Shown piece by piece: positions 38,812 through 63,899 of a DNA stretch of 64,000 nucleotides. The notes under the pieces were generated by a model that had not been told where the DNA came from, searched no databases, and was given only the letters and a program-made list of their open reading frames with translations. This DNA comes from an uncultured Actinomycetes bacterium (GTDB lineage Bacteria > Actinomycetota > UBA4738 > HRBIN12): the NCBI GenBank assembly GCA_963722795.1, contig CAVROD010000004.1, positions 203,443 through 267,442 on the forward strand, read 5' to 3'. Numbering within the stretch: the stretch's first letter is position 1; every line of letters starts with the position of its first letter. A program made the position numbers and the translations under genes.

Positions 38812-39113
38812 GGACCCCGATCGCCTACTTCCTGCTGTTGTCGGCCGTGTTGTTCGCGCTCGGCTCCGCCTCGGTGCTGCTGCGCCGCAACGCGCTGCGC
38901 ATCTTCATGGGGGTCGAGCTGCAGCTCAACGCCGTGAACCTCACGCTCGTGGCCTTCTCGCGCATGCACATGCAGCTCGATGGACAGATCCTGGCGTTCT
39001 TCTCGATGGTCGTGGCCGCGGCTGAGGTGGTGGTCGGGCTCGCCATCATCGTCGCGGTGTTCCGGCGCACGGCTACGACCGACGTCGACCGAGCGAGCGT
39101 GCTGCGCGGATGA
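38808..39113 (+). CDS. nuoK: NADH-quinone oxidoreductase subunit K
   Basis: Contains [26 protein letters not shown]...[17 protein letters not shown]. Confidence 0.9.
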
Positions 39114-42540: not shown

Positions 42541-43982
42541 GCGACGCCCCGCGCGTGGAGCTGTGGGCGATCCTGCCCGTGTTGATCCTGTTCGGCGGGG
42601 CGCTCGTGGCGCTGCTCGGCTCGGCGTTCGCCCGGCGCGGCGCCCAGGCCCCGTTCGTGCTGTTCACGCTCGCCGTGCTCGCCGCCGCATCGGCCTCGGC
42701 GCTCTGGCTCTGGGACCGCGAACCCGTCACCGTGCTGGAGGGCATGGCGAGCGTCGACCGGCTCGCCGTCGTGGGCACCCTCATGCTCTGCGGCATCGGG
42801 GCCTTCGCTGCCTACCTCGGGTTCCACTACTTCGAGCGTGACGAGTTCCGGCGCAACGAGTTCTACGCGTTGGTGCTCTTCGCCCTCGGGGGCATGGCGC
42901 TGCTCGTGGCCGCCGCCGACCTCATCGTGGTGTTCCTCGCGATCGAGGTGCTCTCGCTCTCGCTGTACGTGCTCACGGCGCTCACGTTCCGCCGCGGGCC
43001 CGCCGAGGCCGCGATGAAGTACTTCCTGCTCGGGGCGTTCGCCTCGGCGTTCCTGCTCTACGGGGTCGCGATGAGCTACGGCGCGGCGGCGACGACGAGC
43101 ATCCAGGGCCTCGCGCGCGCCCTCGCCGGCGGGGGGGACAGCCGGGCGCTCGCGATCGCCGGGGCGCTCTTGCTCGTGGTCGGCCTCGGGTTCAAGGTCT
43201 CGCTCGTGCCGTTCCACATGTGGACGCCCGACGTGTATCAGGGCGCGCCGAGCCCCGTGACCGCGTTCATGGCCGCCGCGACGAAGGTGGCGGTGTTCGT
43301 CGTGCTCGTGCGCGTGCTCGACGTGGCGTTCAGCCCGTTGCAGTGGGATCTCGCGCCCGCCGTAGCGGCCCTGTCGGCCGTCTCGATGGTCGTGGGCAGC
43401 GTGCTCGCGATCGCCCAGCGCGACGTGAAGCGCATGCTGGCCTACTCGAGCATCGCCCAGGCCGGGTTCATCCTGTCGGCGTTCGTCTCGCCCGACAGCG
43501 AGGCGATCGCGGCGGCGTTGTTCTATCTGATCGCCTACGGCGCTGCCGTGCTCGGCGCCTTCGGCGTCGTGATGCTCATCTCCGGCGGCATCCGCGAGCA
43601 GACCGGCTTCGACCGGTTCCGGGGCCTCGGCCGGCGGCAGCCCGCGCTGGCGGTGCTGCTCACGGTGTTCCTGCTCTCGCTCGCGGGCATCCCGCCGACC
43701 GCCGGGTTCGCGGCCAAGGTGCTCGTGTTCGGGGCGGCGACGAACGCGGGGTACTGGCCGCTCGTGCTGATCGGGGCCCTCGCGAGCGTGGTCGGAGCCT
43801 TCTTCTACCTGCGGGTCGTCGCCCTCATGGCGATGCAGGAACCCGAGGGCGACGACGTCGCCGACCCCTCCCCGCTGCCTCGCCTCGTGCTGGCCGTGCC
43901 CGCGCTGTCGGTCATCGTGCTGGGTATCGTGCCGGGTGTGCTCGTGCCGCTGCTGCAGGAAGCCGGGGTCCTCTCGTGGTGA
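42537..43982 (+). CDS. nuoN: NADH-quinone oxidoreductase subunit N
   Basis: Antiporter-like, with FHMWTPDVYQGAPSPVTAFMAAATK. Confidence 0.9.
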   Translation: MSDAPRVELWAILPVLILFGGALVALLGSAFARRGAQAPFVLFTLAVLAAASASALWLWDREPVTVLEGMASVDRLAVVGTLMLCGIGAFAAYLGFHYFERDEFRRNEFYALVLFALGGMALLVAAADLIVVFLAIEVLSLSLYVLTALTFRRGPAEAAMKYFLLGAFASAFLLYGVAMSYGAAATTSIQGLARALAGGGDSRALAIAGALLLVVGLGFKVSLVPFHMWTPDVYQGAPSPVTAFMAAATKVAVFVVLVRVLDVAFSPLQWDLAPAVAALSAVSMVVGSVLAIAQRDVKRMLAYSSIAQAGFILSAFVSPDSEAIAAALFYLIAYGAAVLGAFGVVMLISGGIREQTGFDRFRGLGRRQPALAVLLTVFLLSLAGIPPTAGFAAKVLVFGAATNAGYWPLVLIGALASVVGAFFYLRVVALMAMQEPEGDDVADPSPLPRLVLAVPALSVIVLGIVPGVLVPLLQEAGVLSW

Positions 43983-45000: not shown

Positions 45001-45073
45001 GCCGTTCCGACACCCCCCGAACCCCCGAGAAGGCGCTGCTAGGATACGGGCGCCCGAGGAGCCGTTCACTGTC

Positions 45074-45439
45074 ATGAGCGATTACTACGCGTCGTACGGA
45101 GTGGTGCTGGCGGTCCTGACCGCGGGTGCGCTGCTGGTCGCCGTGGCGTTCACCGCGGCGCGTCTGATCGCCCCGAACCGGCCAAGTCGCGAGAAGCTCC
45201 TGACCTACGAATGCGGCATCGATCCGGTCGGACAGGGGTGGTCGCAGAGCCACGTGCGCTACTACGTGTACGGCTTCCTGTTCGTCATCTTCGACGTCGA
45301 GAGCGTGTTCCTCTTCCCGTGGGCGAGGGTCCTCGAGGACATCGGGTACGCGGCCGTGGTGGAGATGGCGATCTTCATCGCGATCTTGGCCGTCGGGCTG
45401 CTCTACGCGTGGCGCAAGGGGGTCCTGCGGTGGGCCTGA
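45074..45439 (+). CDS. nuoA2: NADH-quinone oxidoreductase subunit A, second copy
   Basis: Contains YECGIDP...[22 protein letters not shown]. Confidence 0.85.
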
Positions 45440-45936
45440 TCACCGAGAAGACCGCGCTGCCGCGCATCCAGCCCGTGAAGTTCATCCTCAACTGGGGGCG
45501 CCGCTACTCCCTGTGGGTCATGAACTTCGGACTCGCGTGCTGCGCGATCGAGTTCATCGCCGCGTCGACCGCCAAGAACGACTTCATCCGCCTCGGTGTC
45601 ATCCCCACGGCCCACGGCCCGCGCCAGGCCGACCTGCTCGTGGTGGCCGGCACCCTCACCGACAAGATGGCCCCGGCGCTCAAGCGCGTGTACGAGCAGA
45701 TGCCCGACCCGAAGTACGTGATCTCGTTCGGCTCGTGCTCCAACTGCGGCGGCCCCTACTGGGACAGCTACTCCGTGACCAAGGGCGTCGACCAGATCGT
45801 GCCCATCGACGTGTACGTGCCGGGGTGTCCGCCGCGGCCCGAAGCGCTGCTGCACGGCATCCTGGAGCTGCAGCGCAAGATCAAGGACGAAGACATCGCG
45901 GAGAAGTTCGGTGGCCCGGCATCCGCGGCGTTCTGA
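45430..45936 (+). CDS. nuoB2: NADH-quinone oxidoreductase subunit B, second copy
   Basis: Contains [20 protein letters not shown] and VPGCPP. Confidence 0.85.
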
Positions 45937-45946
45937 TGGGGGCGCG

Positions 45947-46471
45947 GTGAGCGGCGCCGGCACCCTGGCGCTCGACGATGCCGCCTCGCGGCTTCGGGCT
46001 CGATTCGGCGACGACCTGCTCGAGGTGGCCGAGCAGCACGGCCACCTCGCGGTGTCGGTGACGCCCGCCCGCTACCACGACGTCTGCCGATTCGTGCGCG
46101 ACGAGCCCGAGTTCGACTGTGACTACGCCGACTTCACCACAGGCGTCGACCGAGGCGACGACGGCGGGTTCGAGGTCGTGACCCATGTCTTCTCGACGAC
46201 CCATCACCACAACGTGCGCGTGAAGGTGACGCTGCCACATGACGAGCCCGCCGTGGCGACCGTGAGCGACCTGTGGGCCACATGCGACTGGCACGAACGT
46301 GAGACCGCGGAGATGTTCGGCATCCGGTTCGAGGGCCACCCCCAGCCCGTGAAGCTGTTGCTCTCCGAGCCGTTCGAGGGACATCCGCTGCGCAAGGACT
46401 TCGCGCTCATGACGCGCGAGGCCAAGCCCTGGCCCGGCGCGTCCGAGGGCGAGGAGGACGACGAGGCATGA
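45947..46471 (+). CDS. nuoC2: NADH-quinone oxidoreductase subunit C, second copy; no nuoD-like gene follows
   Basis: Contains CDWHERETAEMFGIRFEGHP. 174 aa, so it is not a C-D fusion. Its stop overlaps the nuoH2 start (ATGA). Confidence 0.8.
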   Translation: MSGAGTLALDDAASRLRARFGDDLLEVAEQHGHLAVSVTPARYHDVCRFVRDEPEFDCDYADFTTGVDRGDDGGFEVVTHVFSTTHHHNVRVKVTLPHDEPAVATVSDLWATCDWHERETAEMFGIRFEGHPQPVKLLLSEPFEGHPLRKDFALMTREAKPWPGASEGEEDDEA

Positions 46472-47481
46472 TCGACGTGGTCGCCACCTCGGGCGTCTCG
46501 TTCATCGAGGAGCTCACGTCCAACTTCTGGCTCTCGCTGGTGCTGAAGACGGTGCTGGTCATGGCCTTCTTCCTCATCGTGCCACTCGGGGTGGGCTACA
46601 TGGAGCACAAGGTGCTGGCGCACATGCAGTCGCGTCTCGGACCCATGGAGGCGGGCGCCTTCCACGGCTGGGCGCAGCTCATCGCCGACGGCGTGAAGTT
46701 CATCCAGAAGGAGAACGTCGTGCCGGCGGCGGCCGACCGCACGATCTACTCGCTGGCGCCGGCGGTGGCGATGGTGCCCTACATCGCGATCCTCGTCGTG
46801 CTGCCCTTCAGTGACACGCTGTTCGCGCTCGATCTCGACATCGGCATCTTCTTCGTGATGGCCATGTCGAGCGTGTCGGTGATCGGCGTGCTCATGGCAG
46901 GGTGGTCGAGCGCCAACAAGTTCTCGCTGATCGGGGCTTTGCGCGCGGCCGCGCAGCTGATCGCCTACGAGCTGCCGCTCGTGCTGGCCGCTGCGGGCGT
47001 CGTGATGCTCTCGGGCGTGACCTCGATGGTCGGCATCGTCGAGGCGCAGGAATCGCTCTGGTACGTGATCCCGCTGTTCCCGCTGTTCGTGATCTTCATG
47101 CTCGCCTCGCTCGCCGAGCTGAGCCGCACGCCCTTCGACATGCCGATCGCCGACTCCGAGATCATCTTCGGCGCCTACACCGAGTACGGGGGGCTGAAGT
47201 TCGCGTTCTTCCTGCTCGCCGAGTACGGGGGCATCGTGGCGCTCTCGGGCGTCGCCGCCGTGCTGTTCCTCGGCGGCTACCAGGGCCTGCCGGGCATCCC
47301 GCTCCCCGACCCGATCTGGATGGCGGGCAAGATCGGCGTGCTGTCGTTCTTCGTGATCTGGCTGCGGGCCACCTACCCGCGCCTGCGCGAGGACCAGCTG
47401 CAGCGGTTCGCCTGGCTCACGCTCATCCCGATCTCGCTCCTGTGGATCCTGGGCGCCGCCGTCTTCAAGGTCGCCTTCTAA
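46468..47481 (+). CDS. nuoH2: NADH-quinone oxidoreductase subunit H, second copy
   Basis: Contains SRLGPMEAG..GWAQLIADGVKFIQKE and ELSRTPFDMPIADSEIIFGAYTEYGG. Confidence 0.85.
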   Translation: MIDVVATSGVSFIEELTSNFWLSLVLKTVLVMAFFLIVPLGVGYMEHKVLAHMQSRLGPMEAGAFHGWAQLIADGVKFIQKENVVPAAADRTIYSLAPAVAMVPYIAILVVLPFSDTLFALDLDIGIFFVMAMSSVSVIGVLMAGWSSANKFSLIGALRAAAQLIAYELPLVLAAAGVVMLSGVTSMVGIVEAQESLWYVIPLFPLFVIFMLASLAELSRTPFDMPIADSEIIFGAYTEYGGLKFAFFLLAEYGGIVALSGVAAVLFLGGYQGLPGIPLPDPIWMAGKIGVLSFFVIWLRATYPRLREDQLQRFAWLTLIPISLLWILGAAVFKVAF

Positions 47482-47502
47482 CCGACAAGGACGAACGACA
47501 CC

Positions 47503-48036
47503 GTGGCCATCGACCGAACGCACATCGACCAGCCCGAATCGGGGGTCGGCCAGGGCCTGCTCAAGGGCCTCGCGGTCACGATGAAGACGATGCTGCGCCC
47601 GGCGGTCACGGTGCAGTACCCGCACGTGAAGCCCGATCTGCCGGCGCGCACGCGCGGCGTCATCGCCCTGAAGCAGGAGAACTGCACCGTCTGCTACAAG
47701 TGCTCGCGCGAGTGCCCCGACTGGTGCATCTACATCGACGCCCACAAGGAGACCCACGAGCCGGCGGGCGGGGGCCGCGGGCGCTCGATGAAGGTGCTCG
47801 ACCGTTTCGCGATCGACTACGCCCTGTGCATGTACTGCGGCATCTGCGTCGAGGTGTGCCCGTTCGATGCCCTCTTCTGGAGCCCCGAGTTCGAGTACGC
47901 GGAGTACGAGATGGACCTGCTCATCCACGAGAAGGAGCGTCTCGAGGAGTGGACGTACACGGTGCTGCCGCCGCCCGCCTTGGAGGTCGGCGCCGAGCCG
48001 AGCGCCGACGCCCTCGTGGCGGAGGAGACCGCGTGA
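47503..48036 (+). CDS. nuoI2: NADH-quinone oxidoreductase subunit I, second copy
   Basis: Contains [12 protein letters not shown] and [12 protein letters not shown]. Confidence 0.85.
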
Positions 48037-48533
48037 GCGCACAGGAGTACGCCTTCTGCGTGCTGGCCGTCGTCGGCGGTCTGGCGGCCATCGCCGTGGT
48101 GACCGTGCGCAACGTCGTGCACGCGGCCCTGTACCTGGTGGTCTCGCTGCTCTCGGTCGCCGGGGTGTACCTGCTGCTCGGCGCCGAGTTCGTGGCCTGG
48201 GTGCAGATCCTGATCTACGTCGGTGCGATCGTGATCTTGTTCCTGTTCGGCTTGATGCTCACGAAGGCCCCGATCGGGCGCGATGCGCTCGACAACCAGC
48301 AACGCTGGCTCGGCGCACTCGTGGGCGTGGGCGTGTTCGCCGGGCTCGTGTTCCTGATCCAGCGGGCCTATCCGGTGCAGGACGCCGTGGCGTTCCGAAC
48401 GGTCGAGGGCACGACCGACGTCGTGGGCGAGGCGATCTTCCGCCACTACGTGCTGCCGTTCGAGGCCGTGTCGTTCCTGCTGCTGGCGGCCCTGATCGGC
48501 GCCATCGTGCTCGCCCGCAAGGACGACGCATGA
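48033..48533 (+). CDS. nuoJ2: NADH-quinone oxidoreductase subunit J, second copy
   Basis: Contains [48 protein letters not shown]. Confidence 0.85.
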
Positions 48534-48832
48534 TCCGGCTGCCGCTGGTGCTGATGTTCTCGGCCCTGCTGTTCTCCGCAGGGGTCTACGGGGTGCTCGC
48601 CCGCCGCAACGCGGTGATGGTGCTCATGGCGATCGAGCTGATGCTGAACGCCGTCAACGTGAACCTGGTCGCCTTCGCGGCCTCGCTGCAGGAGATGACG
48701 GGGCAGGTCTTCGCGCTGTTCGTGATCGCGGTGGCCGCCGCCGAGGTCGGCATCGGTCTCGCGATCGTCATCTTGCTGTTCCGCACGCGCGAGTCGATCA
48801 ACGTGGACGAGGTGAACCTGCTCAAGTGGTGA
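48530..48832 (+). CDS. nuoK2: NADH-quinone oxidoreductase subunit K, second copy
   Basis: Contains [26 protein letters not shown]...[17 protein letters not shown]. Confidence 0.85.
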
Positions 48833-50826
48833 CCGCGCTGGCGTCCGAGGGGGAGGCGGCCTTCAAGGCCACGACCGACGGCATCTGGTTCGTCGAGCAT
48901 GCCTGGATCGTGGTGCTGCTGCCGCTGATCTCGTCGGCGCTCATCCTGTTCTTCGGCAAGCGCACGCCCGGCAAGGGGGCGGTGATCGGCATCACCGCGG
49001 TGGCCGCCGCGTTCGCGTTCTCGCTCGGCGTGCTCTGGCACTTCGTGGAAGGCGGGGGGCCCTTCGAGGCGAGCGTCGATTGGTTCACGGTCGGGCCGCT
49101 GCATCTGGAGCTCGGCATCCTCGTCGACGGACTCACCGCCATCATGCTCGTCGTCGTCACCTCGGTCTCGCTCTGCGTGCACGTCTACTCCCTCGGGTAC
49201 ATGCACGGCGACGAGCGGTTCACCTGGTTCTACGTGGTGCTCTCGCTGTTCACCGCCGCGATGCTCACCGTGGTCGTCTCGAACAACCTGATCCAGCTGC
49301 TCGTGGGCTGGGAGGTCATGGGCGTCTGCTCCTACCTGTTGATCGGGCACTGGTGGGAGGTCAAGGAGAACTCGAACGCCGCGATCAAGGCGTTCATCAC
49401 CACGCGCATCGGCGACATCCCGTTCATGTTCGGCATCATCATGCTCATCGCGCTCACCGGGTTCGAGACGACGAACATCGCCGAGATCTCGCACGAGTTG
49501 GGGGTCGGGGTGGCCTCGCCGCTGTTCGTCTCGATGGCGGCCATCCTGTTGTTCGGCGGCACGGTCGGGAAGTCGGCGCAGTTCCCGTTGCACGTGTGGC
49601 TGCCCGACGCGATGGCAGGTCCCACGCCCGTGTCGGCCCTGATCCACGCCGCCACCATGGTGGCGGCGGGCGTCTACCTGATCGGGCGCCTGTTCGAGGT
49701 GTTCCTGCAGGCCGAGCCGTGGGTGCTCACCACGGTCAGCATCGTCGCCGCGATCACCGCGCTCGGCGCCGCCCTGCTGGCGATCGTGCAGGACGACATC
49801 AAGCGTGTGCTCGCCTATTCGACGCTCTCGCAGCTCGCCTACATGGTGGCGGGGCTCTCCCTCGGCGAGCTGGGGCTCACCGCGGGGTTCTTCCACCTGT
49901 TCACCCACGCCTTCTTCAAAGCCCTGCTCTTCCTCGGGGCGGGCTCGGTGATCCACGCCGTGCACTCCAACAACATGAGCGACATGGGGGGCCTGCGGAA
50001 GTCGATGCCCGTCACGTTCTGGACGATGCTGATCGGCTCGCTCGCGCTCGCGGGCATCTTCCCGCTGGCCGGCTTCTGGTCGAAGGACGAGCTGCTCGTG
50101 GTCGCCGAGGAGGAGCATGTGACCTGGCTCTTCGTCGTCTTCCTCATCACCGCGGTGATCACCGCCTTCTACACGATCCGTATGGTGCTGCTCACGTTCT
50201 TCGGGGAGTACAAAGGGCAGGCGCACCCGCACGAATCGCCCCGTACGATGACCGGCCCGCTCGTCGCGCTCGCCGCCGCCACGATCGGGGTGGGCCTCCT
50301 CGGCTCGCCGCAACTCGGCGCCGTGTTCGGCAAGTGGGTCTTCTACGACGCGATCCACGAGGCCGTCTTCGTGCCGTGGATCGCGCTGCTGTCGACGGCC
50401 GGCGCGCTGCTGGGCCTGGCCGCGGGCTGGGCTCTCTACAAGGAACGGAAGCAACAGGACCCGCTGCAGGCCCCGATGGGGCCGCTGTGGAACGTGCTCG
50501 AGCACCGCTACTACATCGACGCCTTCTACATGCGGGCGATCGTCTACCCCGTGCGCGACACCTGGTCGGGGGCCGTCAACTGGTTCAATCAGACGGTGAT
50601 CGACGGCGTCGTGAACGGCGCCGCCCTGCTGGCGAGAGGCTTCGGTCAGGTGGTCGCCTGGTTCGACCGCTCGGTGATCGACGGCGTCGTGAACGGTGCT
50701 GGCGAGACCGCCGGGCGTACCGGCAACGTGCTGAAGTACCTGCAGACGGGCAACGTGCAGTGGTACGCCGTCGCGCTGTTCGTCGGCGTGATCGCGATGG
50801 CCGTCGTGTTCATCCGAGTCGTTTGA
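48826..50826 (+). CDS. nuoL2: NADH-quinone oxidoreductase subunit L, second copy
   Basis: 666 aa, with [28 protein letters not shown]. Confidence 0.85.
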
Positions 50827-50845
50827 GAGGAAGCGTGGAGGCCAC

Positions 50846-52382
50846 ATGACCTGGGAGAACTCGGCCATCACGATCACCACGATGCTGCCCATCGTCGGCG
50901 CGCTGGTGATCGTGCTGATGCCACGGGGCAAGGACCGCGCGATCCGCGGTCTCGGCATCGTGTTCACGGGGGCGGCGCTCGTGCTCGCGATCGCGATCGC
51001 GATCGGGTTCGACTACGGCACCGATGGCCTGCAGTACGTGCTCGACGTGAACTGGATCAGCGCGATCGGGGTGCGCTACCACGTGGGCATCGACGGCATC
51101 TCGCTGCCCCTCTACGTGCTGACCTTCCTGCTGTCGTTCCTCTGCGCGATCTACAGCTGGCGCTACGTGCCCGACCCGGGCCGCACGAAGGCCTTCCTCG
51201 CACTGATGCTGCTGCTCGAGACCGGCATGGCGGGCACGTTCATCGCGTTCGACCTGATCCTGTTCTTCGTGTTCTGGGAGATGGTGCTCGTGCCGATGTA
51301 CTTCCTCATCGCCGTCTGGGGTTCGGCGAACCGCGAGTACGCCTCGATCAAGTTCTTCCTCTACACGCTGTTCGGGTCGATCTTCATGCTGCTGGGCTTC
51401 CTCGCGATGTACTTCCAGGGGCCCGACCCGCACACGTTCGACATGGTGGTGCTCCGCGACTTCGGCATCGCGGGCGGCTTCACGTCAGTCGTTCCAGCTG
51501 ATCGTGTTCGGAGCCGTTGCGCTCGGCTTCGCGGTGAAGGTGCCGATGTGGCCGTTCCACACGTGGCTGCCCGACGCCCACACCGAGGCCCCGACGATCG
51601 GCTCGGTGCTGCTGGCCGGCATCATGCTGAAGATGGGCACCTACGGGTTCATCCGCATCGCGATCCCGATCCTGCCCGACGGCGCCCAGAAGTACGCACC
51701 GTGGATCGGTGCGCTCGCCGCGATCGCCATCGTGTACGCAGCGCTCGCGTGCCTCGCGCAGAAGGACCTGAAACGCCTCATCGCGTTCTCATCGGTCGGG
51801 CACATGGGCTTCGTGATGCTCGGCATCGCGACCCTCACCGAGATCGGCATCCAGGCAGCCATCTTCGGCATGGTGGCCCACGGCGTGATCACGGGCATGC
51901 TGTTCTTCTGCGTCGGCTCGATCTACGACCGCTACCACACGCGCGAGATCGCGAAGATCGGGGGCGGCATGCTGCAGGCGATGCCGAAGCTCGGCAGCGT
52001 CTTCGCCTTCGTGGCGATCGCTTCGCTCGGCCTGCCCGGGCTCGCCGGGTTCTGGGGTGAGGTGATGGCGCTGCTCAGCTCGTTCAGCCCGAACGAGGTC
52101 CTGTTGGCGGACCAGGTGGGTCTGTTCCGTGTGTTCATGGTGATGGGGGGCATCGGCACCGTGCTCACGGCCGGCTACTTCCTGTGGATGCTGCAGCGGG
52201 TGAACATGGGCACCGTGCCCGACCAGTGGCGCGAGGCGGGGCTGCGCGACGTGCTGGTGATCGAGTGGGTGTCGTGGGTGCCCCTGCTGCTGTTGACCCT
52301 GGTGCTCGGGTTGTACCCGCGACTCGTGTTCGGTGTCACCGACGAGGCCGTGAACGGCCTCATGCAGCTGTTGGGGAGCTAG
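50846..52382 (+). CDS. nuoM2: NADH-quinone oxidoreductase subunit M, second copy, one frame switch near 51490
   Basis: Contains WPFHTWLPDAHTEAPTIGSVLLAGIMLKMGTYG. The N-terminal 215 aa lie in a different frame from the rest. Confidence 0.8.
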
Positions 52383-52391
52383 GTCGCCTCG

Positions 52392-53864
52392 ATGGACGTC
52401 GACTACCACGCCCTGCTGCCCGAGTTCATCCTCGCGGGCACGATCCTGCTCGTGCTGGTCGTCGACGTGTTCCTGCCTGAGCGCACGAAGTGGCTCGCGA
52501 TGCCGATCGGGCTCCTCGGGGTGGTCGCGTCGTTCGTCGCGGTGCTCACGCTTATCGGCGCCGACACCCGCATCAGCTTCGGCGGATCGTACGTGGTCGA
52601 CGAGTTCGCGCTGCTGTTCAAGGGGTTCTTCCTCGTGGTGGCGAGCGTGGTGCTGGCCCTGTCGCTGCGGTACTTCCGCGAAGGCGGGTTCTATCAGGGC
52701 GAGTACTACTTCCTGCTGCTCACCTCGTTCCTCGGCTGCGTGATGATGCCGAGTTCGCGCGACCTGCTGCTGCTGTTCATCGCGCTCGAGCTCGTGTCGG
52801 CACCCGGGTTCCTGATGGCTGCGTTCCGCAAGGGCGACGTGAAGTCGAACGAGGCGGGCGTGAAGTTCTTCATCATCGGCGTGTTGTCGACGGCCGTGAT
52901 GCTCTTCGGCATGAGCCTGATCTACGGCGTGACGGGCGGTCAGACGCAGCTCGCCGAGATCGCGGTCGCCCTCGACGGCGTGACGGGCGACCTCGAGACT
53001 CTGGCGTTCGCGGCCATCCTGTTCGTCGTGGTGGGCTTCGCGTTCAAGGTGTCGGCGTTCCCGTTCCAGTTCTGGGCGCCCGACACGTATGAAGGGTCGC
53101 CGGTGCCGGTCGCGGCGTTCCTCGCGGTCGCCTCGAGCGTGGCGGGCTTCGCAGGCCTGTTGCAGCTGATGTTCGTGGCGTTCGCGGGCCAGCACGAGTT
53201 CTGGGTGCCGATCTTCGCGTTCCTGTCGATCGCGACGATGACGGTGGGCAACTTCGTGGCGCTGCAGCAGACGCAGGTCGTGCGGCTGCTCGCGTACTCG
53301 GGCATCGCGCAGTCGGGCTACATCTTGATGACCTTCGCCCTGGTGACCGACGACGCCACGTCGAATCGCGATGCGTTCGCCGCCGGAGTGGCCTACATCC
53401 TGATCTACGGCATCATGAACCTGGGAGCCTTCGCGGCGACCGTCGCCGTGTCGCGGCGCCACCCGGCGCTGCAGGTGGCCGACTTCGCCGGTCTGCGGGA
53501 GACCGCGCCGATCATCGCGGTCGGCATGGCCGTGTTCATGATCTCCCTCGCGGGCGTGCCGCCGACCGGTGGGTTCTGGGGGAAGCTGCTCATCTTCCAG
53601 GCGGCGATCGAACGCGGCGGCACCCTCGGGCCGGCACTCGCCGTGGTGATGCTCGTGAACTCGGTCGTGAGCGTCTTCTACTACCTGGTCGTGCCCCGGC
53701 AGATGTTCCTGCGTGACGCCGCCGACCGTTCACGGCTGCGCGTGCCGGGCCTCGTGACGGCCGTCGTCGTGCTCGCGATGATCGCGATCCTCGCGATCTT
53801 CGTGTTGCCGAACGCCGTCGCGCGGCTGGCCGAGATCTCCACGCTGGTCGGCCTCGGGCCGTAA
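52392..53864 (+). CDS. nuoN2: NADH-quinone oxidoreductase subunit N, second copy
   Basis: Contains FPFQFWAPDTYEGSPVPVAAFLAVASS. 490 aa. Confidence 0.85.
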   Translation: MDVDYHALLPEFILAGTILLVLVVDVFLPERTKWLAMPIGLLGVVASFVAVLTLIGADTRISFGGSYVVDEFALLFKGFFLVVASVVLALSLRYFREGGFYQGEYYFLLLTSFLGCVMMPSSRDLLLLFIALELVSAPGFLMAAFRKGDVKSNEAGVKFFIIGVLSTAVMLFGMSLIYGVTGGQTQLAEIAVALDGVTGDLETLAFAAILFVVVGFAFKVSAFPFQFWAPDTYEGSPVPVAAFLAVASSVAGFAGLLQLMFVAFAGQHEFWVPIFAFLSIATMTVGNFVALQQTQVVRLLAYSGIAQSGYILMTFALVTDDATSNRDAFAAGVAYILIYGIMNLGAFAATVAVSRRHPALQVADFAGLRETAPIIAVGMAVFMISLAGVPPTGGFWGKLLIFQAAIERGGTLGPALAVVMLVNSVVSVFYYLVVPRQMFLRDAADRSRLRVPGLVTAVVVLAMIAILAIFVLPNAVARLAEISTLVGLGP

Positions 53865-53945: not shown

Positions 53946-54832
53946 ATGACGGTGACACCAGGTATCAACAGGGCCAAGACGTGGGTCCTGATCGCGGCGA
54001 TGATGGGCCTGTTCCTGGCGATCGGCGCGTTGCTGGGCGGACGGGCCGGCGTGACGACGGCACTCGTGCTGGGGCTGGGCTTCAACTTCGCCATGTACTG
54101 GTGGTCGGGCTCGATCGCGGTTCGCTCGACCCGCTCGCGCGAGGTGGGGGAGGCCGAGTACCCGCACTGCATCGCATCGTCCGCGAGCTGGCGCAGGCCA
54201 ACGACATGCCGATGCCGGGCGTCTACGTCTCCGACATGCAGCAGCCCAACGCCTTCGCGACCGGTCGCAACCCGCGCAACGCCAAGGTCGCCGTGACGCA
54301 GGGCATCCTGCAGATCCTCGACGAGCGCGAGTTGCGCGGCGTGCTCGCGCACGAGCTGAGCCACGTCGCGAACCGCGACATCCTGGTCGGTTCGGTCGCC
54401 GCGGCGATCGGCACCTCGATCAGCTACCTCGCCTGGATGGCGCTGTGGTTCGGCGGTGACGACGAGGGCGGGAACCCGATCGTCGCCCTCGTCGCGTGGA
54501 TCCTCGCGCCGATCGCCGCCGGTCTGATCCAGATGGCGGTGTCGCGTTCACGCGAGTTCCAGGCCGACGAGTCGGGGGCGTTCCTGTCCCGCGATCCGTC
54601 GGCGCTGGCGAGCGCGTTGCAGAAGCTCGACCAGACGAGCCGGCGGGTACCGCCGCCCCACTCGCTGCAGCCCGGAGAGGCGCACATGTTCATCGTGAAT
54701 CCGCTCGCGGCGCTGAAGGGCCGCGGCCTCACGAGCCTGTTCTCGACGCATCCGCCGACCGAGGAACGGGTCGCGCGGCTGATGGCGATGCAGGACGAGG
54801 TGTACCGCCGGCAGGGACCGATCGGGAACTAG
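53946..54832 (+). CDS. htpX: zinc metalloprotease HtpX (M48 family), one frame switch near 54120
   Basis: Two N-terminal TM helices and an HELSH zinc motif (GVLAHELSHVANRD). Confidence 0.8.
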
Positions 54833-56475: not shown

Positions 56476-57859
56476 TTACGCGGTCAGCTCCTGGCAGAAC
56501 GCGCCGAAGGCCTCGACGTAGATCTGCACGTCGCTCTCGGTGTGCTGCACGGAGACCGTCCACTGCTCCTCGTCGCCCGGGGTCATGAAGATGCCGCGGT
56601 TGACCATCCACGGGTACGACGCCCAGTAGATCTCTGGGATCGTCTCCAGGAAGTCCCGGTAGTTGGCGAGCGGCTCGCTCCGGTAGGAGACGCAGCCCTT
56701 CGCGCCGAGGTCGACCGTGTGCGCCGGGATGCCGCTGTCGGCGATGGCCCGGTTGCACCCTTCGGCCAGCATCGTGCCGAGCTTGCCGAGGTGGTCGTAG
56801 GCGTCGCGCGTGAGCACCTGCGTGAGCGCCGCGAGCCCCACCGCCGAGGAGAGCGGGTTGCCGTTGAAGGTGCCTTGCTGGGCGGCGCCCTTCGTCACGT
56901 ACTCCATGATGGCCGCATCGCCGCCGAAGGCGCCGGTGGTGGCGCCTCCGCCGATGGCCTTGGCCCACGCGGCGAGGTGCGGCACCACGCCGAAGCGCTC
57001 TGCGGCGCCGCCGTAGGCGATCGTGCCGCCGCACTTGACCTCGTCGAAGATGAGCACCGCGCCGTGACGCTCGCAGGCGTCCTTGAGCGCCTGCAGGTAC
57101 CCGTCGTGCGGCACCACGATGCCGATGTTCATCATGACCGGCTCGAGGATGACCGCCGCGATCTCGACCGGGGTTGTCGGTGAAGGCGGCCTCGACGGCC
57201 GATGCGTCGTTGAAGGGCACGATGATCGTCGTGTCCCACAGCGCCTGTGGCACGCCCTTCGATGTCGGCTGCGTGGTGTACCACGGCTTCCCGCTCTCAT
57301 CGACGCTATGCCGAAGGTCGAGCACGTCGGCCTCGGGCACGACCGAGAACAGCACCGAGTCGTGATGGCCGTGGTAGGAGCCTTCCATCTTGATGATCTT
57401 GTCGCGGCCGGTCGCGGCCCGGGCGACCCGGATCGCGTCCATCGTGGCCTCGGTGCCCGAGTTCACGAACCGCATCTGCTCGCACTGGAACCGCGAGCAG
57501 ATCTCCTCGGCGAGCGCGACCGTGGTCTCGGTGGTGACCGCGAAGTGGATCGCGTCGTCGGCCGCCTTCTTGATGGCTTCGACGATCTTCGGATGGGCGT
57601 GCCCGACGACGTTGACGCCGAACCCGCCGTGGAAGTCGGTGTAAAGGTTGTCGTCGACGTCGGTGACCGTGGAGCCCTTGCCGTGCTTGAGGTACACGGG
57701 ATAGGGGTCGCCCGCCTGGAAGTTCGAGACCACGCCGTTGGGCAGGGTCTTGATCGCCCGCTGGTACAGCCGTTCACTCGCCTGGGTCCGACCCAGCCAT
57801 TCCTTCGTTTCCTTCTCGGCGATCTCCGCCGCGCGCGCCTTCAACCGGTCGAGGTCCAC
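56476..57859 (-). CDS. class-III aminotransferase (glutamate-1-semialdehyde 2,1-aminomutase-like), one frame switch near 57180
   Basis: SD AGGAGG 8 nt upstream of GTG. N-terminus LPNGVVSNFQAGDPYPVYLKHGKGSTVTDVDDNLYTDFHGGFGVNVVGHAHPKIVEAI follows the HemL-like pattern. Confidence 0.75.
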
Positions 57860-57921
57860 GCGTATCACCTCCTGAGTCGCGCCAGGGTACTCGGGGGCGA
57901 GGTCGCCCCGCAATGGGGCCG

Positions 57922-58485: not shown

Positions 58486-58569
58486 GGGAGGATGCCCGAG
58501 TGGCCAAAGGGAGCGGCCTGTAAAGTCGCCGGCGATGCCTACGGAGGTTCGAATCCTCCTCCTCCCACC
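58486..58569 (+). tRNA. tRNA-Tyr (anticodon GTA), class II with long variable arm
   Basis: Acceptor GGGAGGA/TCCTCCC; anticodon stem GCGGC/GTCGC with loop CTGTAAA; T-arm GGAGG-TTCGAAT-CCTCC; discriminator A then CC. The 3'-terminal A of CCA is not encoded. Confidence 0.8.
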
Positions 58570-58771
58570 TTGTGATGTCTCGAGACATCGTTCACACGTG
58601 TCTCGGGACATCGTGCCCCTCAGGCCTCCTCCGGCGAGCGCGCCTGGTAGTCCTTGGAGGAGTCGAGGTGAAGCTCGACACCGTGGGCGGCATCAGTTCC
58701 CTCATTCGTCCGTCGCCGGGGTCCTGGCAGGGCTCAAGAGTAGTGCATGAGGAGTGCAGTATCATGCACTG

Positions 58772-59371
58772 ATGGACGATGAGACCACAGCGCTCGCGAT
58801 GGCGATCGGCGGACGGGTGCGACGGGAGCGGCAGTCGCGCCGCTGGACGCTGGATCGGCTGGCCGAGGCCGCCGGGGTGAGCCGCAGGATGGTGGTGAAT
58901 GTCGAGCAGGGTGCGGTCAATCCGAGCGTCGGCAGTCTGCTCAGGATCAGCGACGCGCTCGGCGTCGGGCTTCCGGCGCTGGTCGAGCCGCCGGCAGCGA
59001 CCCCGGTCACGGTGACCCGGAAGGGGACGGGCGCAACCCTGTGGACCAGCGGATCGGGGGGACGGGCGGTGCTCCTTGCCGGCACCGACCCTCCCGATGT
59101 CGTCGAACTGTGGGACTGGACGCTCGGCCCGGGCGACCGACACGCGAGCGAACCGCACATGCAGGGCACCCACGAGCTTCTGACGGTGCACAAGGGCTCG
59201 ATCGCCGTCGAGGTCGAGGGCCGGGCGGTCACGCTCGCGGCCGGGGACACCGCCGCGTTCTCCGGCGATGTCGCACACTCCTACGAGAACCCTCGCACAC
59301 GTCCGGCGGCGTTCTCGTTGGTCGTCTTCCAGCCCGGTGTCGGCGAACGATCGGGGGCGCAGGATGGCTGA
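58772..59371 (+). CDS. XRE-family HTH transcriptional regulator with C-terminal cupin domain
   Basis: HTH_3 region RRWTLDRLAEAAGVSRRMVVNVEQGAVNPSVGSLLRISDALGV, then a cupin beta-barrel. Start may be GTG 58754 or ATG 58772. Confidence 0.7.
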   Translation: MDDETTALAMAIGGRVRRERQSRRWTLDRLAEAAGVSRRMVVNVEQGAVNPSVGSLLRISDALGVGLPALVEPPAATPVTVTRKGTGATLWTSGSGGRAVLLAGTDPPDVVELWDWTLGPGDRHASEPHMQGTHELLTVHKGSIAVEVEGRAVTLAAGDTAAFSGDVAHSYENPRTRPAAFSLVVFQPGVGERSGAQDG

Positions 59372-60098
59372 CCTCGGCGAGCTCGAGAGCTTCCTGGCGG
59401 GCGCCCGCGTCGACGCCGACGTGTTCGCGCTGCGGCCCGACTACCGCGCGTCGCTCCTGGCCGTCGACGGCCTCGTGGCCGGTTCGAGCGATCACGAGAG
59501 CGATGCGCTGCTGCGCGCCGCGGAGGCGACGGCCGCCGAGGCGCTGCGCGACCAAGCCGCGGAACAGCTCCCGCACGTCGCCGCGTGGCGGCACGCGTAC
59601 CGAGCATTCGGCGCCAAGCCGCAGCGCACCCGCAACAGCGTGGAGGCCCTTTTGCGCCGTGCGGCCTCCGGGCTTCCCAGTGTGGATCGGCTCACCGACG
59701 TCTACAACGCGGTGTCGGTGAGGCATCAGATCCCACTCGGAGGAGAGGACCTCGCCCGTTATGCCGGAACGCCCAGGCTGAAGCGCGCCGACGGCACGGA
59801 GCCGTTCGACACGGTGGCCGAGGGCATCGCCGTGACCGAGTACCCCGACGCCGGCGAGGTGGTGTGGTGCGACGACGTCGGCGTCACCTGTCGGCGCTGG
59901 AACTGGCGCCAGGCCCGCCGAACCCAGCTCGGGCCCGAGACGACCAGCGCTCTGTTCATCCTCGATGCCCTCGAACCTCTCTCGGACGAGATGCTGGATG
60001 CCGCCGCCGCGGACCTGGTGGCGCATCTCACGCACCTCGGGCCCGATGTGCGGGTTGCCCGACGCCACCTCAGCGCCACCACGACGAACGGAGCCTGA
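59364..60098 (+). CDS. B3/4 domain-containing protein (Phe-tRNA ligase beta-subunit-related nucleic-acid-binding fold)
   Basis: 244 aa. Start overlaps the upstream stop. Assignment by general resemblance to stand-alone B3/4 proteins. Confidence 0.5.
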   Translation: MADLGELESFLAGARVDADVFALRPDYRASLLAVDGLVAGSSDHESDALLRAAEATAAEALRDQAAEQLPHVAAWRHAYRAFGAKPQRTRNSVEALLRRAASGLPSVDRLTDVYNAVSVRHQIPLGGEDLARYAGTPRLKRADGTEPFDTVAEGIAVTEYPDAGEVVWCDDVGVTCRRWNWRQARRTQLGPETTSALFILDALEPLSDEMLDAAAADLVAHLTHLGPDVRVARRHLSATTTNGA

Positions 60099-60099
60099 C

Positions 60100-60765
60100 A
60101 TGTTGATCCATCCTTGGGATGCCGCGCTCGACGCCGACGAGTGGAAGGATTGGCTGGCCTCGACCGACCGGTTCGGCATGCTCGTCGTCGGCAACCTCGA
60201 TCCCGCGCAGGCTCCGCTGGCCTTGCCCACGCACTTCTCCCTCGCGGGTGACGAGGTGGTCTTCCACCTCGCACGGCCGAACCCGGTCTGGGCGCACCTC
60301 GAGGCGGCGTCGGAGGTGCGGCTCGCGGTGGTCGGTGACTACGCCTACATCCCGTCGTACTGGCGAGCGAAAGCTGGTGGTCCCGACGAGGACGGGGTGC
60401 CGACGAGCTACTACTCGGCCGTGCAGTTCGTGTGTCGCCCGACGGTCGTCGACGACCCGGCAGAGAAGGTGCAGATCCTCGAGACCCAGTTCGGCGATCT
60501 TCAGCCCGAGGGGGACCACGCTGCGGTCGGGGTGGACACTGAGCCGTACGGGCGGATGCTGTCGGGCATCCGCGGTGTGCGGCTGGCGGTGCTGCGCGTC
60601 GACGCCAAGTTCAAGTACGACGACTCCAACCCGGTCGATCATCGCGAGCGCGTGATCGGCTCGCTCGAGGAACGCGGCCGGGGGGTCGACGCCGGGGCGG
60701 CGAGGCAGCAACGTCGTCGCCTCGACACGATCGGCGACTGGCAGGCCCACCGGACCCGTCCATGA
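60100..60765 (+). CDS. PaiB-family FMN-binding protein (PPOX-like split barrel, putative negative transcriptional regulator)
   Basis: 221 aa. Start 2 nt after the upstream stop. Confidence 0.55.
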   Translation: MLIHPWDAALDADEWKDWLASTDRFGMLVVGNLDPAQAPLALPTHFSLAGDEVVFHLARPNPVWAHLEAASEVRLAVVGDYAYIPSYWRAKAGGPDEDGVPTSYYSAVQFVCRPTVVDDPAEKVQILETQFGDLQPEGDHAAVGVDTEPYGRMLSGIRGVRLAVLRVDAKFKYDDSNPVDHRERVIGSLEERGRGVDAGAARQQRRRLDTIGDWQAHRTRP

Positions 60766-60896
60766 ACCCGGCGAGGGCAGGGGGTTCGCACTCGACATGC
60801 GGGATGAGCGGGACCGATCCGGACGGCCCCGAGTGGGCCTTCGGCTCGATGCGGATCGAGTCGAGGACCGCGCCGCGGTTGTCGGATGAGCGAAGC

Positions 60897-61670
60897 TCAG
60901 TTCGCCAGTGAGCCGGCGAAGATCTGCCACGCCAGCACCGACTTCGCCACCAGGCTGAGTACGAGGTAGCTCTTCTCACCGAAGGCGTACTCACCCCATC
61001 TGCCGATCTCCCGGTACTGCAGCCATTGATTGACGCCGAAGCTGGAGAAGAAGATGAACTGCGCGATGACGATCCCGTAGACGAACCCCGGGACCGTCTG
61101 GGATCCCGCGATGTTCACACCGATCGAGATCCACGGGACGATGCCCACGATCGCCCCGAACCAGAAAGCGAGCATCGTCGTCGAGGTCCTCCCCGGCGGG
61201 TTCATCCGCTCCTGGAGCCAACCGAACAGGATCATGCCGACGTTGGCCCCGGCCACGGCGATGACGGCGTTGATCGAGGTGATGCCGGAGTAGAAGCCGA
61301 TCAGGATGATCATCAAGGTGGCGCTGAACGAATACTCGATCCACCGGAAGCGGTTGATGCCTCGTCGCAGGTCGCGCTCGTACGCGCCGCGGGAGACGGT
61401 CGCCGTGAGCAGATGGTCGACGGCCGCCAGAGCCAGGAACACCGCGACGGCCCACCCGATGCGCACGTCGAACAACGTCTCGGGCGCAGGGGGCGGCGTG
61501 CCGGGAGGTCCCTCGGGGAACGACGACGTGACGGCGATGGCGAATCCGCCGGCGAGGAACACGATCAATGCTGCTTGCGCCAGATGGATGAGTGTCAGGC
61601 CGAGGTTCCACCGGTGGAGCCCGCCCAGCCTCGCGTCGTCGACTCCGGTGGCGATGGGAGCTCCGCTCAT
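60897..61670 (-). CDS. heliorhodopsin (7-TM retinal-binding photoreceptor with inverted topology)
   Basis: 257 aa, intact. Tracks the prototype HeR 48C12 block by block: NRFRWIEYSFSATLMIIL (cf. NIFRWVEYSLSSSVMIVL), MILFGWLQE (identical), FWFGAIVGIVPWI, VPGFVYGIVIAQFIFFSSF, and retinal-Lys helix YLVLSLVAKSVLAWQIFAGSL (cf. YIVLSLVAKSALAWQIFSGTL). Confidence 0.85.
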   Translation of the reverse strand: MSGAPIATGVDDARLGGLHRWNLGLTLIHLAQAALIVFLAGGFAIAVTSSFPEGPPGTPPPAPETLFDVRIGWAVAVFLALAAVDHLLTATVSRGAYERDLRRGINRFRWIEYSFSATLMIILIGFYSGITSINAVIAVAGANVGMILFGWLQERMNPPGRTSTTMLAFWFGAIVGIVPWISIGVNIAGSQTVPGFVYGIVIAQFIFFSSFGVNQWLQYREIGRWGEYAFGEKSYLVLSLVAKSVLAWQIFAGSLAN

Positions 61671-61798
61671 CGCTCGTTCCCCGACGTGTCGTCGCTGCCG
61701 AGTGCTGGCATGACCAGTCTCCTTCCATCGGTGGTGACCCGGCTATGGGTGGTGATCCGAACCCCGAGCGACCTCGGACGGCCGAGAGCCCGGCGTGC

Positions 61799-62257
61799 AT
61801 GGGTTACTCCTCGCACGGGGTTCGTTCGACGGAAGGGTACGCTCGAGGCGTGCGAAAGCGAGTCGAGGTTCGAGGACCGGCGAGCGCGGTCGCGATGTGG
61901 TCGGCGTACGCGGACACCTCGCGCTGGTCTACCTGGGCACCTCAGATCCGACGGGTCGAACCGCTGGGGCCGCTCGAGACTGGTATGCGAGGGAAGGTGG
62001 AAGGGCCGTTCTGGACGACGGCCCGGTTCGAGGTCACCGCCGTCGACGAGGCAGCAGGGTTATGGACGTGGAGGGTGCGGGTGGGTCCCGCCAGCCTCAC
62101 GATCGATCACGAAGTTGCCGACGGTCTCGCGGCGGTGGAGATCGACGGGCCCCCGCCGCTCGTCTACGCCTATGCCCCCGTCGCACGTATCGCACTCGCC
62201 CGGCTCGTGCACGTCCCCGGCACGCGTCCACGCACGCGACGGGAACCGGTCGTGTGA
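61799..62257 (+). CDS. SRPBCC (START/Bet v1-like, polyketide cyclase/dehydrase fold) family protein
   Basis: ~150 aa, divergent from the heliorhodopsin gene. Start ATG 61799 or GTG 61849. Confidence 0.55.
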   Translation: MGYSSHGVRSTEGYARGVRKRVEVRGPASAVAMWSAYADTSRWSTWAPQIRRVEPLGPLETGMRGKVEGPFWTTARFEVTAVDEAAGLWTWRVRVGPASLTIDHEVADGLAAVEIDGPPPLVYAYAPVARIALARLVHVPGTRPRTRREPVV

Positions 62258-62292
62258 CCCAGGTAAGCTCGCGTCGACCTGAAGGGGGTGGC

Positions 62293-63006
62293 GTGGAGTC
62301 AGAAGCGGATGAGATCCTTCGTGAGCAGCACCGGTACTACGAGGACAGAGCTCCCGAGTACGACGACGTGTGGTACCGCCGCGGTATCTACGACCTGGGA
62401 GTTGCTGGGAACGAGCGGTGGTTCGAAGAGACGGCCAAGCTCGAAGCGGCGGTCGACGAGCTCGACGTCTCGGGAAGTGTGCTGGAGCTGGCGTGCGGGA
62501 CCGGGTTGTTCACTCGCCACCTCGCGCCCCGCGCCGGACGCATGGTCGCTGTCGACGCGGCCGCCAGCGCGCTGGCTATCAATCGCGAACGGGTCGCCGA
62601 CCCGCGCGTCGAGTACGTGCACGCGGACATGTTCGAATGGGCGCCGCCCGACGACACGCGGTTCGACACGATCTTCTTCGCCTTCCTCGTCTCGCACATC
62701 CTGCCGGAGCGTTCTCGGGCGTTCTGGGATCGACTCCGCGGGTGGCTCGCGCCCGGGGGCAGCGTCTTCTTCTGCGATGACGTCGCCGGCGCCGAGCCTC
62801 GCCGTTCCGATCCGGGAGGCCCCGCCCTCGATGGTCCGCATTTCGCCCACCGCCGCCGCCTGAGCGACGGTCGCGAATACACGATCGTGAAGATCCTCTA
62901 CGGTCCTGAGGAGTTCCGCGAGACACTCAGCGCGTTCGGCTGGGATGCAGACGTCCGAACCACGGGGGATGAGTTCTTCTACGGGGTGGCGCGTCCGTCG
63001 GAGTAG
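62293..63006 (+). CDS. class I SAM-dependent methyltransferase
   Basis: Motif I VLELACGTGLFTRHLA. ~237 aa. Upstream codons of ORF 61795..63006 are read-through. Confidence 0.7.
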   Translation: MESEADEILREQHRYYEDRAPEYDDVWYRRGIYDLGVAGNERWFEETAKLEAAVDELDVSGSVLELACGTGLFTRHLAPRAGRMVAVDAAASALAINRERVADPRVEYVHADMFEWAPPDDTRFDTIFFAFLVSHILPERSRAFWDRLRGWLAPGGSVFFCDDVAGAEPRRSDPGGPALDGPHFAHRRRLSDGREYTIVKILYGPEEFRETLSAFGWDADVRTTGDEFFYGVARPSE

Positions 63007-63053
63007 TCACGTCGCAGGCCGAGCGTGAACACGACGTCAGGAACTCTGCGAGG

Positions 63054-63296
63054 ATGGGCTGCATGCGCGAGGAACAGCGCTACCGTGTGATCGGTGCGAT
63101 CCTGGCGGAGCCGCGCAAGAGTGTTCACGTGTGGACCGTGAGCTTCACCCCATGTGCACGACCGACGGGTCTGCCGTTCGATCCCGACGCCGGGAAGGAG
63201 ATCATCGTCACGATCCTGCCCTCGGTGCTCGACGGGATGAGCTTCGACCACGAGTACACCCGGGTCGAGATCGAGTCGCTGCGGGCGTCACTGTAG
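63054..63296 (+). CDS. hypothetical protein (80 aa)
   Basis: Clean short ORF with plausible amino-acid composition. No family recognised. Confidence 0.3.
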   Translation: MGCMREEQRYRVIGAILAEPRKSVHVWTVSFTPCARPTGLPFDPDAGKEIIVTILPSVLDGMSFDHEYTRVEIESLRASL

Positions 63297-63899
63297 GACC
63301 TGGCCAGGTGGGGGCGAGGCGGGTGGATAGGGGACTGCCACCGTGATGGACGGGGAGACTCCCGGCGCTCCGGGGAACCCGAGTACCGACAGAGGCCAGG
63401 AGCCTCCTCGTTGCACGAGTGTGCGCTCGCCACGTCCGGACCACAACCCCGCCCAGCGGTGTCTCAGTTTGAAGATCGAACTGAGACGCCACCCCCGCCC
63501 AGCTCTCCTCTAGGGTGTCGAGCGTTCGACCACGCTGGCGTCATAGAGCGTCCTGAACTCGGCCGCCAGTTCTGCTCTGTCGACACGAAGTCGCTCGCTC
63601 TCGAATCTCCTGGAGTTGGCGATTGCACCGCCGCTTGTCGGCGGAGATGACGCGGCGAGGAGGATTCGCGTAGCGCCGATCGCCGCCCGCCTCGACGATC
63701 AAGACCCGTAGAACGCTCCGTGCGACTCGAGCGGTACGCAGAGCGCGAGGCGGTGTGGGCTCGGGTCGGAAGTGTCGCCCGGGTCGGAGCGGTCCGGCAA
63801 CTCGGAAAAGGACATCCACATGAGCCGAGGTCTCCTGGTTAGGGGGACCGGAGTCACCGTACGCGTGTCGCGGCTATCACGACGAGGTCACCCGGGCGA

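Follow-up and report, generated by a model that had tools for sequence, protein, structure and literature searches.

Does the 774-bp open reading frame (ORF) near the right end of the window, the whole 64-kb stretch of contig CAVROD010000004.1 from an uncultured Actinomycetes bacterium, encode a functional heliorhodopsin, and do the surrounding genes reveal what the protein does? The original prediction had called the ORF an intact heliorhodopsin gene, and this identification was borne out (the gene and its 257-residue product are referred to as HeR below). The ORF had an ATG start and contained ...YLVLSLVAKSVLAWQIFAGSLAN. Its translation matched the Pfam model PF18761 (Heliorhodopsin) over the full profile (positions 1–242 of 242; expectation value (E) 1.5e-95; 319.6 bits against a cut-off of 26.7) and the NCBIfam equivalog NF038020, 'heliorhodopsin HeR' (positions 1–244 of 244; 270.5 bits against a cut-off of 100). 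The best hidden Markov model (HMM) was the heliorhodopsin model rather than a type-1 rhodopsin or another seven-transmembrane family, and no Pfam match of the ORF to the type-1 rhodopsin family was found even at E ≤ 1. The family prototype is 48C12, from a freshwater actinobacterial fosmid, with the PDB structures 6su3, 6su4, 6uh3 and 9ljj. When HeR was compared with solved structures by sequence (HMMER), three 48C12 depositions ranked at the top (E about 3e-62), with the Thermoplasmatales HeR next; HeR and 48C12 were 47% identical across 236 aligned positions that had no large gaps. The ORF encodes a true, undamaged heliorhodopsin, which falls in the same large subfamily as 48C12, one whose members are mostly actinobacterial. 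Overall, we consider it very probable that the protein is functional, acts as a photosensor or regulator, is transcribed alone in a variable slot beside a tRNA-Tyr gene and obtains its retinal from outside the window.

An AlphaFold2 model of HeR, built on 48 homologues, had a pLDDT of 91.7. It comprised seven helices and the long A–B loop beta-hairpin typical of heliorhodopsins (strands at residues 44–49 and 64–70). Foldseek placed the model on 6su3 with a template modelling (TM) score of 0.88, a root-mean-square deviation of 2.0 Å and an E of 5e-19. The TM scores were 0.86–0.89 to 6su3, 6is6 and 7u55, versus 0.47–0.68 to type-1 rhodopsins, the best of which reached an E of 2.4e-4 and a TM score of 0.60. 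Topology was assessed from hydropathy and the loop charges. Twelve Lys/Arg residues were located in the N-terminus and the B–C, D–E and F–G loops, and none in the A–B and E–F loops or the C-terminus. These charges fit a predicted inverted topology, with the N-terminus in the cytoplasm and the C-terminus outside.

The ORF had also been predicted to follow 48C12 through the helix that carries the Schiff-base lysine, and the alignment agreed. The helix-7 motif of HeR was SLVAKSVLAWQIF, in which K243 paired with K241 in SLVAKSALAWQIF of 48C12; this lysine was invariant in the 48 homologues and in 81 related loci. The Glu counter-ion and His positions aligned as well. H29 and H86 correspond to H23 and H80 of 48C12, so that the pair is kept, S116 and S239 correspond to S111 and S237, and the network of N22, Q32, Y97, R109, E154, E232 and W248 is fully kept. 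In the numbering of 48C12, the two proteins thus share K241, E107, H23, H80, S111, S237 and N16 along with the fold, as well as Q26, Y92, N101, R104, E149, E230 and W246. The mapped pocket residues were invariant in the 48 close homologues and invariant or nearly so in the 81 loci (65–95% identity), in which N22 differed in one locus and H29 in one. Unlike 48C12, with Ser76, Ser112 and Cys166, HeR has Ala82, Ala117 and Ala173 at these positions. Its cytoplasmic D–E loop is longer by two residues and its extracellular E–F loop shorter by five, and the actinobacterium that carries it is of soil type and has a high GC content (about 70%).

In a quantum mechanics/molecular mechanics (QM/MM) study of 48C12, Ser76, Ser111 and Ser237 around the Schiff base were described as 'highly conserved' (PMC9726877). 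There, Ser76 was hydrogen-bonded to the counter-ion and contributed approximately −9 nm to the absorption maximum; its reorientation preceded proton transfer and Ser76 was, by QM/MM, a prerequisite for the Schiff base to pass its proton to Glu (PMC9726877). This serine triad is incomplete in HeR, with S116 and S239 present and Ala82 in place of S76. Alanine at this position was invariant in the 48 close homologues and in all 81 related loci, and the Modestobacter and Geodermatophilaceae HeRs among the compared loci also carried it. As judged from these alignments, Ala82 is a clade trait and no ground to exclude the protein from the family. A small spectral effect is plausible, and the substitution would be expected to shift the absorption slightly to the red, to about 555–560 nm. 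Since Ala uniformly replaces Ser76, the HeR clade of soil and high-GC actinobacteria is a natural S76A variant and offers a natural test of the model in which Ser76 gates proton transfer.

The same substitution may explain the red shift reported for a relative, BagHR of Blastococcus aggregatus, which on expression absorbed at 559 nm versus 551 nm for 48C12 and for which no pumping was detected (10.1101/2024.05.16.594530). The Geodermatophilaceae HeRs were assigned to subfamily 1/group A, and their genes stand alone with diverse neighbours in mostly opposed orientation, from which the authors inferred no co-expression (10.1101/2024.05.16.594530). Among our loci, the Geodermatophilaceae/Modestobacter HeRs (L013, L075 and L079) were 69–76% identical to HeR. 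BagHR belongs to another lineage, as the best matches of HeR were Actinomycetota metagenome-assembled genomes (MAGs) at 82–95% identity, and it is likened to HeR here by its published description.

The reading frame of HeR is real and not an accident of assembly, since two other assemblies kept it. An independent Logan short contig (L084, run ERR11593888), which spans the end of the B3_4 gene, the PaiB-like gene and the HeR region of exactly this strain, matched window positions 59663–61568 with one mismatch and zero gaps. A metagenome contig with 96–98.6% identity to the window (L001) had zero gaps within the HeR coding sequence. No identical database record was found for the exact 257-residue protein, nor for the YajQ and B3_4 proteins of the window; an exact match turned up only for the PaiB-like protein, on a 1.9-kb Logan contig.

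The original prediction had further contrasted an intact HeR with many broken neighbours. For the window this was correct, as at least 11 frame breaks occurred in 64 kb, recognized as consecutive parts of single Pfam models in different frames. It was incorrect for the six immediate neighbours of HeR, which were all intact; the nearest broken gene, that of the aminotransferase, lay at a distance of 3.7 kb, and the majority of the window's genes were unbroken. The broken genes were cytochrome b, COX1, COX2 (at least two breaks), COX3, Caa3_CtaG, NuoD, NuoG (at least two), an M48 peptidase and Aminotran_3. One further break probably lies in the second nuoM, near 51470. Among the breaks were single-base indels at 57167, at 54160 and at about 19.27 kb and about 31.54 kb.

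A whole HeR amid breaks in the genes for the aminotransferase, the M48 peptidase, COX1, COX2, CtaG, NuoD, NuoG and cytochrome b speaks for a reading in which the genome is undergoing real pseudogenisation and HeR has been selectively retained, which would imply an important function. We consider this highly unlikely in view of the comparison with other assemblies. L001 was intact at both of the break sites that it covered: it reads through the aminotransferase, where the window has an extra T at 57167, and in the M48 peptidase the window differs from it by one base in a G-run. In the same aminotransferase, 480 bp away, L001 had a private break where the window is correct. Genes were likewise fragmented in a locus with an 87% identical HeR (L082), which seems to stem from the same series of assemblies. 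The broken genes retained strong Pfam scores and a GC content at third codon positions (GC3) of 0.92–0.97, with no other sign of decay, and several indels fell in homopolymer runs. Related MAGs are Nanopore-only Flye assemblies with one Medaka polish, and their authors note residual Nanopore errors (PMC12313526). Because L001 is intact at the window's breaks yet has its own, L082 is fragmented too, and GC3 and domain scores are kept, the frame breaks resemble indels introduced by long-read assembly and not pseudogenes that were inherited. At approximately 0.18 breaks per kb, a 774-bp gene would be unbroken about 87% of the time. With this chance expectation and six intact neighbours, the intactness of HeR carries no information.

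HeR is monocistronic, because its two flanking genes both lie on the opposite strand, one of them convergent with it and the other divergent (Table 1). Pfam and the gene orientations confirmed the predicted arrangement, with HeR convergent with a PaiB-like gene and divergent from an SRPBCC gene and an S-adenosylmethionine (SAM) methyltransferase gene. The XRE-cupin regulator and the tRNA-Tyr that had been placed nearby were also present, according to Pfam and to ARAGORN and Rfam, respectively. No sigma-70-like consensus was found by a scan of the presumed promoter region, the consensus being uninformative for a high-GC actinobacterium, and a scan of the convergent spacer found no intrinsic-terminator-like site. 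In a published survey, co-transcription with a neighbour was predicted for only 38.6% of helR genes, and the window HeR falls in the stand-alone majority (PMC11109279). Recurrent partner classes in that survey included glutamine synthetase, photolyase, ABC transporter, MerR, TerC, SDR, alpha/beta hydrolase, DUF2177 and DUF2238 (PMC11109279). None of its ten classes was adjacent to HeR; the two flanking genes belong to the FMN_bind_2 and Polyketide_cyc2 families. No glutamine-synthetase, photolyase or ABC-transporter gene flanked HeR in the window, and the photolyase/glutamine-synthetase neighbour pattern reported for some heliorhodopsins, for which a check had been proposed, was thus not present beside it.

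To what extent the neighbours belong with HeR was addressed by synteny. In total, 317 HeR loci were confirmed among species-representative genomes, and the neighbourhood work covered the best 80. These were nearly all Actinomycetota MAGs, including Acidimicrobiia, Gaiellales, Solirubrobacterales and Geodermatophilaceae/Modestobacter. The same tRNA-Tyr flanked HeR in L001, L082 and L003, and what lay between them changed. L001 had the gene order of the window plus an amino-acid permease in the slot (L001 12938–15019). L082 shared the backbone of NDH-1, M48 peptidase, decarboxylase, aminotransferase, YajQ and tRNA-Tyr; its slot (10784–11335) held a lone small DUF7712 gene before HeR, and between HeR and SRPBCC lay an epimerase gene, immediately upstream of HeR and in the same orientation. 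In L003 (HeR 85% identical), 5.6 kb of unrelated genes occupied the slot (L003 7165–12800), namely an FAD oxidase, a glyoxalase-like gene and adenylate-cyclase/STAND genes. Carotenoid genes beside the L003 HeR were considered and rejected, as the downstream flavoprotein is of a generic FAD/amine-oxidase type and no crt cluster was present. The XRE/B3_4/PaiB trio (58754..60765) was found in L001 and was absent beside HeR in L082, L083, L003 and the 80 genome loci. Because the cargo changes among the window, L001, L082 and L003, the observations support a variable slot beside tRNA-Tyr in which the neighbours of HeR are incidental. They also support the published view that what actinobacterial HeRs do cannot be read from the genes around them.

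As an alternative, HeR might form a functional light/redox module with its neighbours (XRE-cupin/B3_4/PaiB or SRPBCC/methyltransferase), for example one in which light controls a response to flavin or oxidative stress. In favour of this, the arrangement was identical in L001, an SRPBCC gene was near HeR in L082, with distant copies within 5 kb in L062 and L069, and L083 also had a methyltransferase divergent to HeR, though no detectable homologue of the window's. Links to oxidative stress have been proposed for HeRs (10.1101/2021.02.01.429150). However, L001 is about 97% identical to the window at the DNA level and essentially the same species, so the shared order is mere inheritance. The five window neighbours were beside HeR in none of the 80 other genomes, and L082 kept the HeR locus without the trio. 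Clustering of all flanking ORFs gave no common neighbour beyond generic SDR/NAD-binding genes (11–16 loci). The 137 nearest flanking ORFs carried 182 Pfam families, the commonest (NAD_binding_10/NmrA/Epimerase) in 8 ORFs, and none of the window's neighbour families ranked among them. In addition, the gene orientations exclude an operon. A module with the neighbours is thus very unlikely and largely refuted by synteny.

The next families among the 137 nearest ORFs (L002–L083) were ABC_tran (5), DUF2867 (4) and B12-binding domains (3). The B12-binding neighbours are possibly light regulators of the LitR/CarH type, and the Epimerase and ABC_tran neighbours echo the published 'SDR' and 'ABC transporter' groups of HeR neighbours.

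SRPBCC was the only window neighbour that persisted in L082, with a copy 77% identical. Enrichment of SRPBCC near HeR was tried as an explanation and rejected, as iterated HMM searches of all ORFs found the subfamily in only 4 of 84 loci. There is at best a sliver of a chance that the SRPBCC protein (START/Bet v1 fold) is a hydrophobic-ligand carrier that captures retinal or another retinoid, or delivers it to HeR, in organisms without a retinal pathway. Such a carrier, if real, would be the first molecular answer to chromophore loading in bacteria with HeR as their only rhodopsin.

The GC3 of the HeR block (58754–63296) was 0.78–0.89 versus 0.92–0.97 in the adjacent respiratory genes. The lower values would fit genes that are accessory or were gained more recently, yet those at the window's left end (303–4936) were similar. 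A mobile island integrated at tRNA-Tyr was unsupported, as no att-like repeat of the tRNA-Tyr end was found, no integrase was seen and the left-end genes had a similar GC3. An 80-residue ORF without a Pfam match (63054–63296, plus strand) was 99% conserved in L001, and approximately 380 bp of the window (63450–63832) were absent from L001.

No crtB, crtI, crtY or blh gene was present in the 64-kb window, in agreement with the original prediction, as determined from translations of all coding segments and from Pfam and NCBIfam searches of candidates; the window does not speak for the rest of the genome. The accompanying statement that the window holds two polyprenyl synthases needed correction. 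Only one is a true polyprenyl synthase (PF00348), and the other prenyl-type gene is CtaB. As a candidate CrtE the synthase was rejected, since long-chain nonaprenyl/heptaprenyl synthases matched best and CrtE far lower; it is more likely related to menaquinone, because it directly follows an NDH-1 operon. A geranylgeranyl-reductase-like gene was rejected as a lycopene cyclase, as PF05834 covered only its Rossmann N-terminus, below the cut-off; its best NCBIfam matches were the geranylgeranyl-reductase family and MenJ.

The missing crt and blh genes could mean that the organism is unable to obtain retinal and that HeR is an apo-protein or relic without a light function, and frame-shifted HeRs in some Geodermatophilaceae suggest weak selection there (10.1101/2024.05.16.594530). 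Set against this, the pocket and Schiff-base residues are invariant, or nearly so, across the 81 loci, which points to purifying selection. Among 381 HeR-only genomes, the complete retinal pathway was present in one, a beta-carotene oxygenase in 55% and a retinol dehydrogenase in 63%; HeRs also capture retinal from external sources (10.1101/2021.02.01.429150). Since HeR-only genomes are usually without a full pathway, the lack of retinal genes near HeR is the published norm and unremarkable. A relic is, on this evidence, exceedingly unlikely.

A functional photosensor or regulator would work as follows. Fold, topology and pocket residues were computed here, and the photochemical steps are modelled on 48C12, TaHeR, BagHR and the partner-binding HeRs. 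All-trans retinal would bind at K243; as in most HeR-only genomes, it would either be scavenged or be the product of genes that lie beyond the window. Light would isomerise the retinal, and the Schiff-base proton would pass to the E112/H86/H29 cluster without release from the protein. A long-lived intermediate would then alter the cytoplasmic loops or face and modulate a partner protein. By analogy, HeR would be a slow photosensor or a regulator of another protein rather than an ion pump, and its partner, if any, would be encoded elsewhere. Known partner-regulating HeRs are AbHeR with glutamine synthetase (PMC9529153), TfHeR with a photolyase (PMC9769723) and OcHeR with the ABC transporter OmrDE (PMC11109279). 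They belong to the same family and, like HeR with its 12 Lys/Arg residues, have positively charged cytoplasmic loops. The same mode of action, a light-dependent protein–protein interaction, would be expected by analogy. Unlike HeR, which is monocistronic, they share an operon with the partner.

Several points weigh against a functional photosensor. Retinal binding, the photocycle and the lack of transport are all carried over to HeR by analogy, and no partner gene is encoded alongside it in the window. HeR has no counterpart of Ser76, and details of its photochemistry may therefore depart from those of 48C12. Some viral HeRs conduct protons, and sequence alone cannot exclude transport.

More than 6,900 database proteins matched HeR at E ≤ 1e-20; the closest was 95% identical and 120 were at least 76% identical. 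HeR hosts are reported to be monoderm prokaryotes (10.1101/2021.02.01.429150). In line with this, all named close relatives of HeR were from Actinomycetota, and the window had approximately 70% GC and an actinobacterial-type gene set. The gene adds one member to a very large, already described clade, in which thousands of sequences and several structures are available. The identification was right in every detail that could be checked, and HeR is an unexceptional representative of a family with many members and solved structures. The special significance implied for the locus was unsupported: the context is lineage-specific, the intactness is a matter of chance, the missing retinal genes are normal and there is no operon partner. 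The finding has little importance apart from the correct annotation of the gene, to which standard pipelines would already give the name 'heliorhodopsin HeR'. What remains of value is the Ala that the whole clade has in place of Ser76, together with a small chance that the persistent SRPBCC neighbour plays a role in chromophore handling.

Table 1. Positions of HeR, its functional codons and other features in the window.
Feature	Position	Strand	Basis or remark
HeR coding sequence, 257 residues	60897..61670	minus	ATG 61668-61670, stop 60897-60899; ORF list, PF18761, NF038020, 48C12 match, AlphaFold2 model
Lys243 codon, retinal Schiff-base lysine (= 48C12 K241)	60942..60944	minus	HMMER alignment to 6su3, residue mapping
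Glu112 codon, Schiff-base counter-ion (= 48C12 E107)	61335..61337	minus	Alignment; conserved in homologues and loci
Ala82 codon, position of 48C12 Ser76	61425..61427	minus	Ungapped alignment anchored by F78/F72 and H86/H80
Likely ribosome-binding site GGGGAA, purine-rich	61677..61682	minus	6 nt 5' of the HeR ATG; read from the sequence, putative
Presumed HeR promoter region, divergent intergenic HeR/SRPBCC	61671..61867		Gene orientations
Convergent spacer, 131 bp, PaiB-like stop to HeR stop	60766..60896		Gene orientations
tRNA-Tyr (GTA), conserved locus anchor	58486-58569	+	ARAGORN, Rfam; about 2.3 kb from the HeR stop
XRE-HTH+Cupin_2 gene	58754-59371	+	Pfam
B3_4 gene	59364-60098	+	Pfam
FMN_bind_2/PaiB-like gene, convergent with HeR	60100-60765	+	Pfam
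Polyketide_cyc2/SRPBCC gene, divergent from HeR	61868-62257	+	Borderline Pfam, 27.3 bits against a cut-off of 27.4
SAM methyltransferase gene	62290-63006	+	Pfam
Polyprenyl synthase, PF00348	43936-44997		Best NCBIfam: long-chain nonaprenyl/heptaprenyl synthases
CtaB heme-O synthase, UbiA family	24533-25600		Pfam/NCBIfam
Geranylgeranyl-reductase/MenJ-like flavoprotein	27853-29157		Pfam/NCBIfam
Frame-broken stretches	10300-13200, 17692-22558, 30724-31942, 33914-36359, 53951-54829, 56479-57919		

Further left of tRNA-Tyr, the window contained YajQ/DUF520, class-III aminotransferase, pyridoxal phosphate (PLP) decarboxylase and M48 peptidase genes. The window was dominated by respiratory genes, with cytochrome bc, aa3 oxidase, CtaA/CtaB, two NDH-1 operons and Rex. 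The two NDH-1 operons were in tandem (29168–43979 and 45011–53861). The first appeared complete (nuoA–N); the second, read by eye from translations and partly Pfam-checked, appeared to be without the NADH-oxidising E/F/G subunits. COX15/CtaA heme A synthase and CtaB (UbiA) domains were located in one stop-free frame on the minus strand (24533–26602), which suggests a fused CtaA–CtaB protein.

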